From assembly GCA_965219415.1 (NCBI GenBank), contig CBDCNP010000002.1, positions 4,864,001-4,928,000 of the forward strand: 64,000 bases of DNA. The letters are read 5' to 3'. This document shows positions 13,112-49,557 of this stretch, one piece after another. Source of the stretch: Candidatus Marinacidobacterales bacterium. Its GTDB lineage: Bacteria > Acidobacteriota > Vicinamibacteria > Marinacidobacterales > DATDRI01. The position numbers were made by a program, and so were the translations under genes. How positions within the stretch are numbered: the first letter of the stretch is position 1; every line of letters begins with the position of its first letter. The notes under the pieces were generated by a model that was given only the letters and a program-made list of their open reading frames with translations, made no database searches and was not told the origin of the DNA.

Positions 13112-13277
13112 GGTGCTTCCGCCATTAAGTGTTGGTGAAATGGCGCTAAGACTTTACGGTGCATTAAATTACAGCCAAAATAGGGCTCACGACCTTCGCT
13201 ATACGCTAAATGAAGTGTAAGCCCCTTTTTTGCAAAGGGATGCGTACACATCACCAACAGCAAATAGCGCAAGCACC
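13112..13277. mobile_element. 166-bp IS1-type MITE, copy 1
   Basis: Imperfect TIRs GGTGCTTCCGCCATTAAGTGTTGGTGA / GGTGCTTGCGCTATTTGCTGTTGGTGA; homologous copies at 23828, 25435 and 53473. Confidence 0.85.
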
Positions 13278-18617: not shown

Positions 18618-20033
18618 CTAGCTGAAGTCCACCCCGAAGAACAGCACCGCGATGATGATCGCCGCCACGGCCAGCGGCGACACGAACTGAATGAAGAACC
18701 GCCACGCTCCATAGTTGAACCACCTGGGTTCTGAGCCATCCACGAGCTCCCGCTCGGTGTACTTGCGCGTCAGGAACCAGCCCGCCGCGATCGTGATCGC
18801 AAATCCCCCGGTCGGGAGCATCCAGTTCGACACGAAGTGGTCGACCATGCCGAACCAGCTCGCCTTGCCGCCGAAGAGCATCTGGCCGAGCGCGCCGCCG
18901 AGTTGGAGCTCGGTGATCGCGCCGACACCACCGAACGACAACGCGGCGAGGACCGTGAAGGCAAACACCGCACCACCACACAGCAGCGTCGCCGTGGCCC
19001 GCGGCATGTGGTGTTCGTCGATCACGTAGGCAGCGACCACTTCCAGTAGCGACATCGTCGAGGTGAGCGCCGCGAGGGCCACCAGCACGTAGAAGAGTGG
19101 CCCCAGGAATGCCCCGAACGGGACCTCGGTGAAGAACAGCTGCGGCAGCGAGATGAAGAGCATCCCCACAGTGCCCGTGCCGCTGACCTGCTCATCCATA
19201 CCCGGCACGCTGAAGATCACCGAGAACATGATCACCGTGGCCACGAGTGCGATCAGCGTATCGAGCACGACGATGATCGCCGAGGCTTTCACGATCGACT
19301 GATGCGTTGCGATGTACGAGCCGTACGTCACCATCGTGCCCATGCCGAGCGAGAGCGTGAAGAACGCGTGGCCGAGCGCCTCGAGGACGCTCCCCCCATC
19401 CAACTCGCCGAAGCGCGGCAGGAAGATGAAGCGGAGCGCCTCACCGGCCCCGGCCATCTCCAAGGCGGAGACGAGCAGCAAGACGAGGATCCCGAAGAGA
19501 ATCGGCAGAAAGACACGCGCGATGCGCTCGATGCCCTTTTGGACGCCGAAGTAGACGACCGAGACCGTGGCGATACTGAACCCGAGAGACAAGCCAAGCT
19601 GCAGGCCGCCATTGGCCGCCTGCGCACCGAACAGCTCGCCCATCGAGGCGCCCGCCGGGAATCCACCGACCGACCAGCCCGCGGACTTGGCGAAGTAGAA
19701 GAGCGACCAGCCCGCAATCACCGTGTAGTAGCTGAGCAGCAGAAAGCCGCAGAGCACGCCCCAGAGGCCAACGATGTCCCACGCCGGCCCGATGGCCTGC
19801 TTGAGCGCCCCGACCACGCTCTTCTGCGTCGCTCGCCCGATCAGCAGTTCGGCCATCATGATGGGCAGGCCCACGGCGGCGATGCACACGAGGTACACGA
19901 GGACGAAGGCCCCGCCGTTGTTCTCCCACGTGACGAACGGAAACTTCCACAGGTTGCCGAGGCCGATCGCGCTCCCGGTCGCGGCGAGAATTAAGCCGGT
20001 GTTCGAACTCCAATGGCCGCGCGGCTCTGACAT
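18618..20033 (-). CDS. Sodium-dependent transporter, NSS/SNF family (LeuT/MhsT-like)
   Basis: Signature GSAIGLGNLWKFPF..NGGAFVLVY; AFFTLSLGMG.MVTYGSY. Confidence 0.95.
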   Translation of the reverse strand: MSEPRGHWSSNTGLILAATGSAIGLGNLWKFPFVTWENNGGAFVLVYLVCIAAVGLPIMMAELLIGRATQKSVVGALKQAIGPAWDIVGLWGVLCGFLLLSYYTVIAGWSLFYFAKSAGWSVGGFPAGASMGELFGAQAANGGLQLGLSLGFSIATVSVVYFGVQKGIERIARVFLPILFGILVLLLVSALEMAGAGEALRFIFLPRFGELDGGSVLEALGHAFFTLSLGMGTMVTYGSYIATHQSIVKASAIIVVLDTLIALVATVIMFSVIFSVPGMDEQVSGTGTVGMLFISLPQLFFTEVPFGAFLGPLFYVLVALAALTSTMSLLEVVAAYVIDEHHMPRATATLLCGGAVFAFTVLAALSFGGVGAITELQLGGALGQMLFGGKASWFGMVDHFVSNWMLPTGGFAITIAAGWFLTRKYTERELVDGSEPRWFNYGAWRFFIQFVSPLAVAAIIIAVLFFGVDFS

Positions 20034-20336
20034 GTGTCGTTCTCCGATCGATGGCGTGGTCTACGGGAGGCGATGCGGCCCCAACAGATCCCGGCCCGTG
20101 AAGTCTCGCCCAGTAGACGTTACGTAAATACTCTAAAGGATTTCTGTCGGACCAGCGAGCGGCACGGCAGTATCGCGCGTCAGCACGCCACGGAAAGTCA
20201 TCCGACCGTGGCGGCCGCCACGCACCTGGGTACTGGGTGCTTCCGCCATCAAGTGATGGAATGGACTCCTCCACTGACATAGACGGCATCGATGTGCCAA
20301 AGTCAGTCGAATACGCATCGAAAAGGAGGAGTCCGA

Positions 20337-21368
20337 ATGAAAGATACGACAATCGCTGTGGATCTTGCAAAGAACGTCTTCGAGATTGCCATCTCGGGAG
20401 AAGCGGGGAAGGTGTCCAAGCAACTCCGTGTGAGTCGACCCAAATTGGTGTCGTTCTTTGCCAAACAGAGCGCTGCCACCGTGCTTCTCGAAGCCTGCGG
20501 CTCGGCTCACTTCTGGGCAAGGACGTTCCGAAGGTTGGGACACGACGTCGTCCTGCTCCCACCTCACCTCGTGAGGCCGTATCGACGCGGGAGCAAGAAC
20601 GACCGCGCCGACACGAAGGCGTTGCTCGAGGCCTACAGGAACGAGGAGCTTCTTCCCGTACCCATCAAGTCCGTGCACCAGCACACCCTCGCTGCGCTCC
20701 ATCGCCTGCGCTCAGGATGGCTCTCCACACGGACCGCACGCATCAATGCCGTACGCGGGCTCCTGCGCGAACTCGGATTCATCATCCCAAAGGGCGCTCA
20801 CTTCGTCGTGCCCGCCCTCTTCGAACTCGTCGAAGACGCTGATTCTGATTTGCCCGACGTGCTCCGTTCGCATCTCCGTGATGCCTGCTCCGAGATTCGA
20901 GAACTCAAGGACAAGTGCGCTAGCATCGAGCACGAGCTCAAGGCGCTCACCAAGCAGCTTCCTGAAGTCCAACGACTTCTCGCCATTCCCGGCATCGGAC
21001 TTCTGGCCGCGACCGCCATCGTGGGCTTCGTCGGCGATCTTCGCCGCTTCCCATCGGGGCGCCGCTTCTCGAGCTACCTCGGCCTAGTTCCCAAGGAAAA
21101 CTCCAGTGGCGACATTCGCCGCCTCGGACGCATCACCAAGCGTGGCGACTCCTACCTCCGTATGCTCCTCACCCAGGGCGGGCGCGCCGTGCTCCGCGCG
21201 GCGAACGTCAGCAAGAGCCCGCCCGACAAGCTCCGCGCCTGGGCTCGGAAGGTCCACCGCTCGCGGGGACACAACAAGGCCGTGATTGCTGTCGCCAACA
21301 AACTCGCCCGGATCGTCTGGGCCGTCTCCACCCGCGAGAGTGAATTCCAGTCGCCGGTGGCCGCTTAG
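20337..21368 (+). CDS. IS110/IS1111 DEDD recombinase
   Basis: RBS AGGAGG; IAVDLAKNVF, LEACG, KNDRAD (DEDD); PGIG; PKENSSG serine loop; GRITKRGD. Confidence 0.95.
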   Translation: MKDTTIAVDLAKNVFEIAISGEAGKVSKQLRVSRPKLVSFFAKQSAATVLLEACGSAHFWARTFRRLGHDVVLLPPHLVRPYRRGSKNDRADTKALLEAYRNEELLPVPIKSVHQHTLAALHRLRSGWLSTRTARINAVRGLLRELGFIIPKGAHFVVPALFELVEDADSDLPDVLRSHLRDACSEIRELKDKCASIEHELKALTKQLPEVQRLLAIPGIGLLAATAIVGFVGDLRRFPSGRRFSSYLGLVPKENSSGDIRRLGRITKRGDSYLRMLLTQGGRAVLRAANVSKSPPDKLRAWARKVHRSRGHNKAVIAVANKLARIVWAVSTRESEFQSPVAA

Positions 21369-21409
21369 ATTTAGAGGCTCCACTTTCGTGTTTTCCTTTT
21401 TCCCTTCCA

Positions 21410-21600
21410 AAAGAGGCTGCGACGATACCCATCCAACTGATGGCGTACCGGTCGGACCGGCGCGGGGTCAAGCCAATAGCAACACTGGCCCTAAGAGGTC
21501 GTTCAAAGTGATTGGCTCCTCGCGCGCGGATTTTCCATCATGGCCCGGAGCACCCAAGACGCTCCTCACTGAGGCCGAAGATACGTTTGCAGTCTGACCC
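21410..21600 (+). ncRNA. Predicted bridge/seek RNA of the IS1111 element (boundaries approximate)
   Basis: Target loop closed by GCCAAT/ATTGGC contains TAGCAACACT and AAGTG. Donor loop contains TTCCATCAT and AGATACG. All four match the target or the predicted circle junction. Confidence 0.8.
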
Positions 21601-21703
21601 ACTCGTCACGACGCGATGGATGCGCAGCTTCGATGGAAGATTTATTAAGAAAGGGGCGTGACTAGAAAGAAAGGGGCTTGACTAGAGGAGTCCAGATATG
21701 TTG

Positions 21704-22773
21704 CTACGCGGCTGCGGGCAGTGGTACAGGTGCGGAAGAGACCGGGTTGCGCGCCCTACTGAGCACGAAAACCTCGATCCGCGACCGCAAAGGAATCGTC
21801 GTCGCCAAGAAGATGTCTCGAAAGGTGAGCCGTCGCGTGGTCAGACCAGCCTGCATAGCCGGAGTTCGGATCTCACGTCCGAACTTCAGAGCTCCGTGCG
21901 GTCGGACGAAGTTGTAATAGCAACGGAGCAACTCTAGGTGCTCATCGAGCCTCTCCGTCGAGCGAGCGTGGGAAAGCGTTCGTCTCGAAAGGTATGCCGA
22001 GCTTTGCCGGATGGTCAGATTTAACCGCTCGATGAACGACGTGTTCAATGTCGAGGAGTCCTCGGAGTTATTGAGCGCGTCTTCGAATCGCCACGCGGCT
22101 CCGTGCAGCGCTCTGCGTTCGACCTTGATGATGCGACCGTTCCTGCGCGTCTTGAGGACCTGGCCGTAGAGACACGCTGGCCCGAAGAAGCGACGGATGA
22201 CCTTCTGGTAGAATTCGAATCCATCCGTGACGATCAAGGGAAGACGTCCGAAACTCATCCGTCTCGAAAGGTCGCGAAACAGAGCGTGAGTGTTCCGGTA
22301 GCTTCGCCTTCCCGTCACCGTCGATGGCCAGAGCCGAGACCAGACTTCGATTGTAACGAAGACCCAACTCGGTGTCTTCCTGTTGCCCGCGAACGTGCGA
22401 ATCTCGTCGGCTTGAAGCTCTTCGGCAGCGAAGCCAGCGATCCTTCTGTGATTGAATCGACGACACACTTGGGCTGCCTTCTCGAGCCAGCGGGCGACGG
22501 TGTTCCAGGCAATCCCTTTGATCCGGGAAATCGAGGAAATGCTGACACCCTCGACTCTGAGAGCGATGACCCCCCATCGAAAGTAGCTCTTCGATGTTGG
22601 AGACGGTAGTAGGGCGTGCCTTTCGTCGAGGAGAACGTCTTTCCGCACTCGCCGCACCGGTATCGACGGCGTTTCCCGGACCTGGTTCTGTAGAATCCGT
22701 GGCGAACGATGTTTCCGGAACTGACTTTGCGCCGCAACGGACATGCGAGATTGAGACATCTGCGATTCTTCAC
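21704..22773 (-). pseudogene. IS1-family transposase, frameshifted at ~22570 (C6 run versus 4 in the intact copy)
   Basis: Two overlapping ORFs together equal the 355-aa protein at 48467. Confidence 0.85.
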
Positions 22774-23178
22774 TTTGGCTCGGCCCTGAAGATGAAAGAA
22801 CTGTGTCTTCGGAATTCTGGTTCAAACTCTAGCACGCAGACCGGTTAGGGGCTGGCCGCCAACACTTAATTGCGGAAGCACCGTATTTGGATCGGGCGCA
22901 GGCCGACGATCGCTGGCACGTGATTCGCTAAAGCGCGGGGGATGAACTGGTGCAGATAAGCCGTAGCGTTGTCTGCATAGATCTACAATTCTCATTGGGC
23001 CAAAAAGTTGCGGGCTCAGATTGGCTCCTGTACATTTAGACTGAAAGTTCCGACCTGTGCCTGGAGCAATGTAGACGAGCAGGAGGATGGGAATGCGGCG
23101 AATTGCAGTGATCGGTGTGATGACTACGGCGGCGGCTGTCGTTTTGCCCTCGGCCTCACAGGCGTCAACTGGGAGGGG

Positions 23179-25434: not shown

Positions 25435-25599
25435 GGTGCTTCCGCCATTAAGTGTTGGTGAGATGACGCTAAGACTTTACGGTGCATTAAATTACAGCCA
25501 AAATAGCGCTCGCGACCTTCGCTGCGCGCTAAATAGAGCGTAAACGACTCTTTGCAACTGGATACGTACACATCACCAACACTTAATGGCGGAAGCACC
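25435..25599. mobile_element. 165-bp IS1-type MITE, copy 3, with perfect TIRs
   Basis: GGTGCTTCCGCCATTAAGTGTTGGTGA at both ends. Confidence 0.9.
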
Positions 25600-43296: not shown

Positions 43297-43568
43297 CGTG
43301 AGGTCAAAATACTCATGCGGCTTCCCGTTGGAAAGGTGCAAACTGCTGACCCGATGGGCGTTCGAATATTTTGACCAGACGGGATTGCACCATCGATACG
43401 AGTGGCGAGAGGCAGCCTGAGTCAGCTTGGTCGCTCGCGTTACTCGGCTGGTCGCCGAGAAGTTCCTCCTCAGCACCTTCCCTCGCGCGCTGACCACGCT
43501 CTCCAGCATGTGCTCGAGGGCGGTCCGGGCCCTAGAATCCAGTCCCGGATTAATAATGATGATGGACA
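43297..43568. mobile_element. 85-bp F+F MITE (43297-43381) plus element X 3' end
   Basis: CGTGAGGTCAAAATACTC ... GAATATTTTGACCAGACG. Confidence 0.8.
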
Positions 43569-44307
43569 CGTTGGACTTCAGGAAGCTGCTTGGTGAGCGC
43601 CTTGAGCTCGTGCTCGATGCTAGCGCACTTGTCCTTGAGTTCTCGAATCTCGGAGCAGGCATCACGGAGATGCGAACGGAGCACGTCGGGCAAATCAGAA
43701 TCAGCGTCCTCGACGAGTTCGAAGAGGGCGGGCACGACGAAGTGAGCGCCCTTTGGGATGATGAATCCGAGTTCGCGCAGGAGCCCGCGTACGGCATTGA
43801 TGCGTGCGGTCCGTGTGGAGAGCCATCCTGAGCGCAGGCGATGGAGCGCAGCGAGGGTGTGCTGGTGCACGGACTTGATGGGTACGGGAAGAAGCTCCTC
43901 GTTCCTGTAGGCCTCGAGCAACGCCTTCGTGTCGGCGCGGTCGTTCTTGCTCCCGCGTCGATACGGCCTCACGAGGTGAGGTGGGAGCAGGACGACGTCG
44001 TGTCCCAACCTTCGGAACGTCCTTGCCCAGAAGTGAGCCGAGCCGCAGGCTTCGAGAAGCACGGTGGCAGCGCTCTGTTTGGCAAAGAACGACACCAATT
44101 TGGGTCGACTCACACGGAGTCGCTTGGACACCTTCCCCGCTTCTCCCGAGATGGCAATCTCGAAGACGTTCTTTGCAAGATCCACAGCGATCGTCGTATC
44201 TTTCATTCGGACTCCTCCTTTTCGATGCGTATTCGACTGACTTTGGCACATCGATGCCGTCTATGTCAGCGGAGGAGTCCATTCCATCACTTGATGGCGG
44301 AAGCACC
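43569..44307 (-). mobile_element. Truncated IS1111 copy 2 (43569-44287), again inserted in an IS1 TIR (44288-44307)
   Basis: Same junction GGTGCTTCCGCCATCAAGTG|ATGGAATGGACTCCTCC as at 20236-20272. Confidence 0.9.
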
Positions 44308-44425
44308 CCGTTGCTACTACAACTTCGTCCGACCGCACGGAGCTCTGAAGTTCCGACGTGAGACCCGAACTCCGGTATGGCCGTGCCCCTTGCCGCACCT
44401 CCAAAAATGGAGGCAGGTTATGCCC

Positions 44426-48358: not shown

Positions 48359-49557
48359 GGTGCTTCCGCAATTAAGTGTTGCGGCCAGCCCCTAACTGGT
48401 CTGCGTGCTAGAGTTTGGACCAGAATTCCGAAGACACAGTTCTTTCATCGTCAGGGCCGAGCCAAAGTGAAGAATAGCAGATGTCTCAATCTCGCATGTC
48501 CGTTGCGGGGCAAAGTCAGTTCCGGAAACATCGTTCGCCACGGATTCTACAGAACCAGGTCCGGGAAACGCCGTCGATACCGGTGCGGCGAGTGCGGAAA
48601 GACGTTCTCCTCGACGAAAGGCACGCCCTACTACCGTCTCCAACATCGAAGAGCTACTTTCGATGGGGTCATCGCTCTCAGAGTCGAGGGTGTCAGCATT
48701 TCCGCGATTTCCCGGATCAAAGGGATTGCCTGGAACACCGTCGCCCGCTGGCTCGAGAAGGCAGCCCAAGTGTGTCGTCGATTCAATCACAGAAGGATCG
48801 CTGGCTTCGCTGCCGAAGAGCTTCAAGCCGACGAGATTCGCACGTTCGCGGGCAACAAGAAGACACCGAGTTGGGTCTTCGTTACAATCGAAGTCTGGTC
48901 TCGGCTCTGGCCATCGACGGTGACGGGAAGGCGAAGCTACCGGAACACTCACGCTCTGTTTCGCGACCTTTCGAGACGGATGAATTTCGAGCGTCTTCCC
49001 TTGCTCGTCACGGATGGATTCGAATTCTACCAGAAGGTCATCCGTCGCTTCTTCGGTCCAGCGTGTCTCTACGGTCAGGTCCTAAAAACGCGCAGGAACG
49101 ATCGCATCATCAAGGTCGAACGCAGAGCGCTGCACGGAGCCGCGTGGCGGTTCGAAGACGCGCTCAATAACTCCGAGGACTCCTCGACATTGAACACCTC
49201 GTTCATCGAGCGGTTGAATCTGACCATCCGGCAAAGCTCGGCATACCTTTCGAGACGAACACTTTCCCACGCTCGCTCGACAGAGAGGCTCGATGAGCAC
49301 CTGGAGTTGCTCCGTTGCTATTACAACTTCGTCCGACCGCACGGAGCTCTGAAGTTCGGACGTGAGATCCGAACTCCGGCTATGCAGGCTGGTCTGACCA
49401 CGCGACGGCTCACCTTTCGAGACATCTTCTTGGCGATGACGATTCCTTTGTGGTCGCGGATCGAGGTTTTCCTGCTCAGTAGGGCGCGCAACCCGGTCTC
49501 TTCCGAACCTGTACCACTGCCCGCAGCCGCGTAGCAACACTTGATGGCGGAAGCACC
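48359..49557 (+). mobile_element. IS1-family element, copy 2; intact 355-aa transposase 48467-49534
   Basis: GGT-starting TIRs; Zn ribbon (C..C...RYRCGECGKTF), HTH, DDE ELQADE / VTDG / NTSFIERLN; no target duplication. Confidence 0.92.

Follow-up and report, generated by a model that had tools for sequence, protein, structure and literature searches.

What determines the site when one mobile element enters the end of another, again and again, at the same base and in the same orientation? The question is raised by a 64,000-nucleotide stretch of a Candidatus Marinacidobacterales genome (assembly GCA_965219415.1, contig CBDCNP010000002.1, positions 4,864,001 to 4,928,000, here called the window), in which a 1445-bp element of the IS110 family, IS1111 group, interrupts the terminal inverted repeat of an IS1-like element (Table 1). 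An earlier note, made from the sequence alone, had read the newcomer as a natural RNA-programmed recombinase. We consider it very probable (roughly 0.88) that this is an RNA-guided IS1111 element aimed at one position and one orientation of the IS1-like terminal repeat. Its family membership, its repeated use of one exact site and orientation, the fold of its RNA region and the covariation of guides with flanks are observed. Homology and covariation together suggest that the RNA does the guiding, and this reading draws its weight from site use across the genome, from matches that lie in loops supported by covariation, and from the guide–flank covariation seen in relatives.

An IS1111 element in an IS1-like terminal repeat

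The 343-aa transposase matches PF01548 (E 6.9e-12) and PF02371 (E 3.2e-24), both above gathering scores, and the NCBIfam model NF033542, ‘IS110 family RNA-guided transposase’ (302.9 bits; cut-off 140). The C-terminal part of the protein can be aligned with the solved transposases of ISCro4 and IS621 (IS621 E 9e-8), Ser-Gly motif included, such that GLVPKENSSG in the element lies against GLTPRRYESG of ISCro4; the stretch in the element follows the motif GL-P----S(t)G as defined for these proteins (PMC11187229, section 6). Sub-terminal repeats, a longer non-coding region downstream of the gene and a transposase of 330–350 aa mark the IS1111 group (PMC11187229, sections 4, 6). Here 332 nucleotides (nt) follow the gene (21369-21700) and 81 nt precede it. 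The sub-terminal repeats TGGACTCCTC and GAGGAGTCCA are perfect over 10 bp, those of relatives (TGGACTCCTCC / GGAGGAGTCCA) span 11–15 bp, and IS1111 repeats are usually 11–13 bp long, the terminal extensions beyond them being short and asymmetric (7 left, 3 right). Counting the TG to the left end, the extensions around the 10-bp repeat are 8 on the left and 4 on the right, which become 7 and 3 when counted as in the 12-bp repeat of ISPa25. The element has one specific target in one orientation and makes no target duplication. The IS1111/IS110 assignment of the earlier note thus stands, and 20256-21700 is an autonomous DEDD member of the group.

The boundaries are sharp to within a dinucleotide. 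The left junction reads GGTGCTTCCGCCATCAAG-TG (20236-20255) followed by ATGGAATGGACTCCTCC, the right junction GAGGAGTCCAGATA-TG (to 21700) followed by TTGCTACGCGG (from 21701). Removing 20256-21700 joins GGTGCTTCCGCCATCAAG-TG to TTGCTACGCGG and restores, as had been claimed, the exact reverse complement of the empty end at 49527-49557, so that filled and empty sites do stand in one window. Comparison of the empty with the filled site reveals no added bases except the TG, which is common to the target and to both junctions, and the limits of the element are therefore ambiguous by 2 bp; to judge from relatives with known empty sites (see below), the TG at the left junction would be the element's own.

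The interrupted host element is 1202 bp long without the insert (20236-22882). The insertion point lies 18–20 bp from the tip of the repeat and adjoins the stop codon of the host open reading frame (ORF), whose TAG is the CTA of TTGCTA on the other strand; the insertion would be expected to disable this end of the host element. The other host repeat (22854-22882) reads ...GCAATTAAGTGTTGGCGG and lacks a cognate site. The host had been called an IS1-family element. One position and one orientation of its terminal repeat are indeed used, but its transposase scores below the curated IS1 cut-offs (best model NF033558, 58.5 bits against 100; PF03400, 20 against 24.1), and for this reason we name it IS1-like, not IS1. 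Its repeat presumably resembles the terminal repeat of E. coli IS1. Genome-wide there are about 480 unfilled ends with the tip GGTGCTTCCGC, the commonest of which read CATTAAGTGTTGGTGAG. Unfilled tips in the window lie at 13112, 18254, 23828, 25435, 25599 and 53473; those at 25435 and 25599 are inverted, only 165 bp apart, and together resemble a miniature derivative from the IS1-like family.

Site use across the genome

The genome of the window (8.05 Mb in 3 contigs) was searched with blastn for further copies: 26 match positions 1-1445 of the element, four more are near full length and four are fragments. All 33 left ends (33/33) come after GGTGCTTC(C/T)GC(C/T)ATCAAGTG, and TTGCTA follows 30 of 31 right ends, the exception being TTGGCG; the mapping of all genomic insertions that the earlier note had called for thus places them, with that one exception, at the cognate position. 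The exceptional copy (G000 C3:5105456-5106900) has the right flank TTGGCGGCCGCC, which is like the interior of the host's other repeat, and the usual tip on its left; it could be a rare near-cognate insertion or the product of a rearrangement between ends.

Unfilled sites, counted among ends with the same 11-nt tip, complete the picture. There are 66 unfilled cognate ends (.ATCAAG-TG-TTGCTA), together with 52 near-cognate ends of the form ATCAAG-TG-TTG[not C] and 216 others of the form xAAG-TG-TTG[not C] (about 270 in total; one such variant reads ...AAGTGTTGG...). About one-third of cognate ends are filled and near-cognate ends almost never: a single filled site carries TTGG. The discriminating bases CTA are covered by the 5′ target guide only (see below), and sites without CTA are unused. 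The specified site is (T)CAAG-TG-TTGCTA, about 11–13 bp, and in this genome it occurs almost only in one IS1-like terminal repeat. An empty site is also present in one contig of sequencing run X17 (joint 20255 to 21700).

Such a pattern might also arise if a few insertions had been multiplied by transposition or duplication of the host elements that carry them. With the outer 18–20 bp of the host repeat left intact, the composite might still be mobile; 16 copies show 100% identity over 1-1445, and two host subfamilies hold most filled ends. Against this, the filled ends come from three or more host subfamilies, which differ in their interiors and all of which have empty ends as well, and four further public genomes show insertions at the same position. 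Two insertions in one relative genome (L049, L050) lie outside any IS1-like end and share with the cognate site only the guide-specified bases TCAAG-TG-TTGCT, which delimits what the guides read; non-IS1 sites in relatives retain TCAAGTG. Multiplication by the host would also leave the covariation of guides and flanks across relatives unexplained, and we consider it quite improbable as an account of the pattern.

A conserved RNA region and its probable target guides

For comparison we fetched 40 homologue loci. A scan of species representatives found copies with 89–98% protein identity only in public metagenome-assembled genomes (MAGs) titled Candidatus Marinacidobacterales, most of them in the same repeat, as well as a 46% relative in a Steroidobacteraceae genome; homologues at 30–61% identity are present in 57 of 301 genomes of the same class. 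The conserved RNA region of these relatives is about 155 nt long. An alignment of 25 sequences (A1; MAFFT; relatives at 30–98% protein identity) gave five helices with RNAalifold, counted here with one pair added to helix 4. The resulting fold has 29 pairs, with 96.3% of cells paired and 15 pairs changed on both sides. None of 500 shuffles reached any of five measures of it, and moving the partners by 1–3 columns left 35–44% paired. Helices P3 and P4 enclose the first loop, and its stems are found also in the minimum-free-energy fold of a single sequence (21369-21700, z = -3.3), among them the stem GCCAAT 21472-77 / ATTGGC 21511-16 that had been read by eye. The outer pairings of the single-sequence fold differ from those supported by covariation (P0 is missing) and were not used. 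A hairpin CCGGUC/GGACCGG (21448-60) was likewise set aside: judged by eye on A1 rather than by a formal count, relatives do not keep its outer pairs, and it is in competition with helix 2. A further helix, GGAGC/GCUCC (21547-65), is likely real and was left out of the count, the MAFFT alignment being out of register there.

Within the first loop, TAGCAACACT at 21477-86 and AAGTG at 21506-10 lie where the earlier note placed them, both enclosed by helices 3 and 4. The first, as RNA, complements the top strand AG-TG-TTGCTA and the second the bottom strand, and both include the TG. The same order, with the complement of the top strand lying 5′ of the complement of the bottom strand, is found in the 23 relatives tabulated.

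If the loop is a guide, its letters should change with the flanks, and they do. We compared A1 columns 54-64 and 79-90 with the junction sequences of 23 elements for which both flanks were available. Dropped from these comparisons were L131 (right flank beyond the end of the contig), L106 (left anchor missing), L134 (end anchors missing and no pattern match for the RNA segment), L127 (different scaffold), and L123 and L140 (ends not located). The poor fits L130 and L136 were kept among the 23; L136 is also one of 19 non-redundant representatives, from which L130, with guides as in L116, was left out. The reverse complement of the 5′ strand shares a mean longest common substring of 7.6 nt with its own right flank and 4.2 nt with those of others; for the 3′ strand the means are 5.4 nt with its own left flank and 3.5 nt with others'. 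The observed sums were reached by none of 20000 permutations, figures that overstate independence, since the relatives are kin that share targets, and that to this extent argue less strongly for RNA guidance. Own flanks ranked first in 16 of the 19 representatives. The covariation that the earlier note had proposed to look for across homologues is thus present.

Individual lineages illustrate the same point. An element with 90.6% nucleotide identity (L047, a public MAG record, locus 1417-2841) carries the guides AUAACAAUCGU and GCAGCG and the flanks CTCCAGTG | ATTGTTATCC, and so reads as a naturally reprogrammed relative. It is a single copy among five genomes searched; at the crossover its two target guides have CG, and its two junctions have TG, which could reflect an off-target insertion or a later C-to-T change. 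Between the relatives G216 and G160 the guides differ as CCC to CCU and the flanks by one base each (AGGGA to AAGGA and TTCCC to TTCCT), and in the Steroidobacteraceae element AAGGAUCG stands against CGATCCTT (guide and flank). A 187-nt contig from an RNA library (run X18) matches the scaffold on both sides (21467 to 21571) with 99 different letters between them, as a relative with other guides would look.

It has to be asked whether the matches within the non-coding region are coincidental, the site being picked by recognition of the host repeat by protein. Taken by themselves, the matches are only modestly unlikely: among 2000 mononucleotide shuffles of a 302-nt non-coding region, 27 matched the 31-bp target over 10 nt on one strand or the other and 47 matched the predicted circle junction over 9 nt, which is suggestive but not decisive. 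Coincidence would not, however, place matches at homologous loop positions in 25 relatives and change them with the flanks, nor would it produce L047. RNA guidance has moreover been demonstrated by experiment for the IS1111 members ISEc11, ISKpn4, ISPst6 and ISPa11, and ISPa25, the closest named relative of our element, is a diverged relative of ISKpn4 (46% identical) with a similar predicted seekRNA (PMC11187229). Protein recognition with chance matches is, in our judgement, hardly credible.

The second loop and the crossover

The earlier note had also read a second loop, with TTCCATCAT (21533-41) and AGATACG (21579-85), as matching both sides of the predicted circle junction. The positions are confirmed, and the two parts fare differently. 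The right-end guide matches the right end at 7/7 positions in 10 of the 23 elements, at 6/7 in 12 and at 5/7 in one; it follows right-end changes in several lineages (AGATA / ATATA / ATACA, and CG / TG / GG), and none of 20000 permutations reached the observed value. A 93% variant has AGAUAUG, a full match to its own AGATATG end. It is likely from these comparisons that the right-end guide reads the right end of the element. The left-end guide overlaps P0, in which its CCAUC pairs with an upstream GAUGG; the helix changes together with its RNA partner (UGACGG:CCGUCA, AAAUGG:CCAUUU, CAUGG:CCAUG), whereas the DNA left end stays TGATGG. Its covariation with the DNA left end is weak (own mean 4.6 nt and others' 4.1 nt, reached by 170 of 20000 permutations). 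Its distal bases nevertheless follow changes of the left end in L101, L132, L135, L069 and the G216 group. That the left-end guide reads the left end of the element is thus partly supported.

It is possible, at odds well short of even, that the target loop alone is a guide, that the protein recognizes the ends by way of the sub-terminal repeats or, as in ISEc11, of the flanking target, and that the second loop is scaffold. The P0 pairing and the weak left-end covariation would fit, as would two experimental results: an 82-nt ISEc11 seekRNA, described as holding the target-matching regions, was sufficient for movement (PMC11187229, section 10) and moved a mini-element better than the 154-nt form (PMC11187229), and circle formation by ISEc11 required intact target flanks around the donor (PMC11187229, sections 7, 10, 14). 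From its shortness we take the 82-nt form to be without a donor loop. The behaviour of the right-end guide, and that of the distal bases of the left-end guide in the five groups just named, argue the other way. In many IS1111 members donor nucleotides lie in a multi-loop, according to Durrant et al. These considerations (P0 and the weak left-end covariation, the short ISEc11 RNA and the multi-loop remark) are why we rate the right-end guide as likely and the left-end guide as no more than putative.

The TG/CA core proposed in the earlier note holds for the window, in which donor and target both have TG, but not for relatives whose empty sites are available. Empty sites of G229 read GAACGT-CG-GCTTTCTAG in six of seven cases; those of G208/G147 read TGCATC-CG-(C/A)TTGTT.. 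in four of five, the fifth being TGCATT-CC-CCTTGTTGGG. Filled sites in these relatives read flank-TG-ATGGGA...AGATA-CG-flank. An empty CG together with a filled TG...CG means that an element TGATGG...AGATA was inserted 5′ of the target CG, in line with how the ends have been described in print (PMC11187229, section 4). As far as these sequences tell, donor and target there share only the G, and nothing is duplicated. In relatives with CG targets the 3′ target guide reads the flank plus CG, and the right-end guide reads AGAUA plus CG, that is, the integrated right junction and not the circle junction.

These features could mean that the RNA of this IS1111 clade uses a logic of donor reading unlike that of IS621, with P0 as a mask, the integrated junction as the sequence read and a single shared G, an idea that we put forward as speculative and on balance unlikely. 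In P0 the left-end guide is paired with UGAUGG, a copy, lying upstream, of the sequence at the left end of the element; this pairing could keep the guide masked until protein or DNA displaced it. If so, the long form of the RNA may serve excision as much as insertion, and the lineage would act to disable IS1-like ends specifically, in genomes overrun with them.

A proposed mechanism and the evidence weighed

We propose that the DEDD transposase works with an RNA transcribed from the 3′ non-coding region, which would be made and bound as in experimentally studied kin. The internal loop 21477-21510 would bear two short guides that set about 11–13 bp of the target, and the segment downstream would hold a guide for the right end and, probably, a second for the left end. 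Excision would give a circle, and insertion would leave no target duplication. In such a circle a spacing of 18 bp would separate the -35-like hexamer TTGACT from the left-end TGGAAT, and the two may form a circle-junction promoter. A conserved TTGAC just before the right repeat is found in several relatives and in ISPa25, and circle-junction promoters have been reported for the family (PMC11187229, section 4).

Several observations weigh against RNA guidance as read here. Three of the 19 representatives (L121, L136, L124) rank other flanks first, and the right flank of L130 mismatches its own guide. The right-end guide of the window copy itself retains CG, and so has one mismatch to its own end, and the left-end guide is partly a helix strand that covaries with its RNA partner. 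An Rfam scan of 20000-22000 with E up to 1 returned no family for the RNA, its sole match being a chance microRNA (E 0.089) within the gene. The circle junction has no match in the assembly and none in the sequencing-run contigs that match the element; contigs drop rare forms, and this is thus no evidence of absence. RNA-library contigs from marine sediment and sponge match parts of the gene and of the non-coding region and are mostly of relatives; the runs were viewed as Logan contigs, which cannot show transcript ends or strand and are thus neutral on transcription. Finally, some of the filled sites were possibly multiplied by a host element moving together with its insert.

Table 1. Coordinates of the element, its RNA and the host repeats, numbered from the first letter of the window.
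Feature	Position	Strand	Remarks
IS1111-type IS110-family element	20256..21700 (equivalently 20254-21698)	+	1445 bp as delimited in the earlier note
TG at left junction	20254..20255	+	Common to target and right junction
Left sub-terminal inverted repeat TGGACTCCTC	20262..20271	+	Extension ATGGAA (20256-61) in front
Right sub-terminal repeat GAGGAGTCCA (21685-94)	21685..21700	+	With extension GATA (21695-98) and TG (21699-700)
Transposase gene	20337..21368	+	343 aa; GGAGG in front; PF01548, PF02371, NF033542
Conserved structured RNA (long seekRNA / bridge RNA scaffold), ~155 nt	21436..21593	+	Alignment A1, 25 relatives
P0	GAUGG 21439-43 with CCAUC 21535-39	+	Covarying helix
P2	21458-66 with 21519-28	+	Helix of the covariation-supported fold
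P3	21471-76 with 21512-17	+	Helix of the covariation-supported fold
P4	21487-90 with 21497-21500	+	Helix of the covariation-supported fold
P5	21541-45 with 21573-77	+	Helix of the covariation-supported fold
Target-binding loop module	21471..21517	+	Stem AGCCAA(U) 21471-77 / (A)UUGGCU 21511-17; inner hairpin 21487-21500
5′ target guide UAGCAACACU	21477..21486	+	Complements top strand AG-TG-TTGCTA (right flank and TG)
3′ target guide AAGTG	21506..21510	+	Complements bottom strand
Putative left-end (donor) guide UUCCAUCAU	21533..21541	+	9/9 to predicted junction; CCAUC (21535-39) in P0
Right-end (donor) guide AGAUACG, likely	21579..21585	+	Right end AGATA and next two bases; one mismatch (AGATATG)
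TTGACT, -35-like hexamer	21678..21683	+	18 bp from left end's TGGAAT in a circle
Outer 18 bp of interrupted host terminal inverted repeat, GGTGCTTCCGCCATCAAG	20236..20253	+	Tip precedes all 33 left ends in the genome
Rest of host IS1-like element	21701..22882	-	Transposase ORF 21704-22825, 373 aa
Other host terminal repeat	22854..22882	-	Reads GGTGCTTCCGCAATTAAGTGTTGGCGG on minus strand; not cognate
Empty cognate site, right end of intact host element (48359-49557)	49527..49557	-	
Second copy, first 719 bp only	43569..44287	-	Left junction at same position of repeat tip (44288-44307)

Truncated and rearranged copies

The second copy in the window, with its junction at 44287, uses the same position, as the earlier note had observed; only its first 719 bp are present (43569-44287, minus strand). 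It is cut there by another element (43540-43568), the end of which reads TGTCCATCATCATTATTAATCCGGGACTGG on the strand of the copy. The same end cuts another copy after 122 bp (G000 C3:4572945-4573069), which indicates a third mobile element that inserts into the IS1111 element. Next to the repeat tip of the second copy, on its outer side, is CCGTTGCTACTAC (44308-44330); within it, where it would not be expected, is GTTGCTAC, the inner half of the target site.

The right end of the complete copy contains a tandem duplication of about 20 bp (21640-21683; AAGAAAGGGGCGTGACTAG / AAAGAAAGGGGCTTGACTAG) that doubles the -35-like TTGAC/GTGAC box; the 98% relatives lack this duplication, as do two copies in the genome of the window (match split at 1411/1412). 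Elsewhere a full element is directly joined to a partial tail (G000 C3:3315125-3316853; loci L031, L039, L040, L044, L045, L046, L056): the right end runs into the interior of the transposase gene, after which come a second RNA region and another right end. The sequence of these loci is compatible with off-target insertion into another copy and subsequent homologous deletion. A single DNA contig (run X1) joins 20510 to 21434, skipping 923 bp of the transposase gene and keeping the left end and the whole RNA region; it could represent a non-autonomous derivative, on the evidence of one contig with 32 letters on its shorter side and of a form missing from the assembly.

Comparison with known systems

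The mechanism itself, by seekRNA or bridge RNA, has been known since 2024 (PMC11187229; PMC11208160), and that knowledge is unchanged by this element. What seems worth keeping is the specificity profile, the reprogrammed relatives, the P0 helix and the one-base overlap. A single genome yields a specificity profile without experiment (about 30 filled sites, 66 empty cognate sites and about 270 near-cognate sites almost unused), and relatives from 46% to 98% identity that keep the scaffold and change the guides could serve as orthologues with known targets. In an uncultivated lineage of acidobacteria, the locus also presents a mobile element that lives on another's ends. No report of an IS1-like end as an IS110 target came up in a literature search that was not exhaustive and did not extend to the supplementary target tables of the 2024 papers.

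The targeting of another element's inverted repeats is, as such, already in print. IS1383 was reportedly described by Muller et al. in 2001 as targeting the inverted repeats of IS1384, and Partridge and Hall are said to have shown in 2003 that IS4321/IS5075 target the terminal repeats of Tn21-family transposons. These are likewise IS110/IS1111 elements that take the terminal repeat of another mobile element as target, in one orientation, but their hosts belong to families other than that of the IS1-like host. The target logo of IS4321 has since been confirmed (Siddiquee et al., section 13).

The best named match is ISPa25, at 45.9% protein identity. Its left end, TGATGGAA TGGACTCCTCC, is the same as that of our element (TGATGGAATGGACTCCTCC), its right end is GGAGGAGTCCATATA followed by the CG of the target, and it has the same RNA scaffold with guides in the same places. 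SeekRNAs have been co-purified with the transposases of ISKpn4 and ISPst6, and the RNA of ISPa25 is predicted to fold alike (PMC11187229, section 9). ISPa25, ISKpn4 and ISPst6 target integron attC sites, whereas our element targets an IS1-like terminal repeat; ISPa25 also differs in coming from another host phylum and in having CG, not TG, as its target dinucleotide.

IS621 shares with our element a DEDD recombinase with a C-terminal Ser-Gly motif. Its bridge RNA is described as having two pairs of guides, through which both strands of the target and of the donor are read, with the guides overlapping at the crossover (PMC11208160). The IS621 RNA is encoded at the left end, whereas the RNA region here lies downstream of the gene, and the guide order of our element is that published for IS1111 (PMC11187229, section 9), the reverse of that described for IS621 (PMC11208160). 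Unlike those of IS621, the putative donor nucleotides lie outside a simple internal loop, and in relatives of the element donor and target appear to share only a G, where IS621 shares a dinucleotide. The closest published parallel to the pair formed by our element and L047 is ISEc11 and ISXne4, close kin that keep the stems and change the guides with the flanks (PMC11187229, section 10); L047 differs from that case in being a single copy and in having TG at its junctions although its guides read CG.

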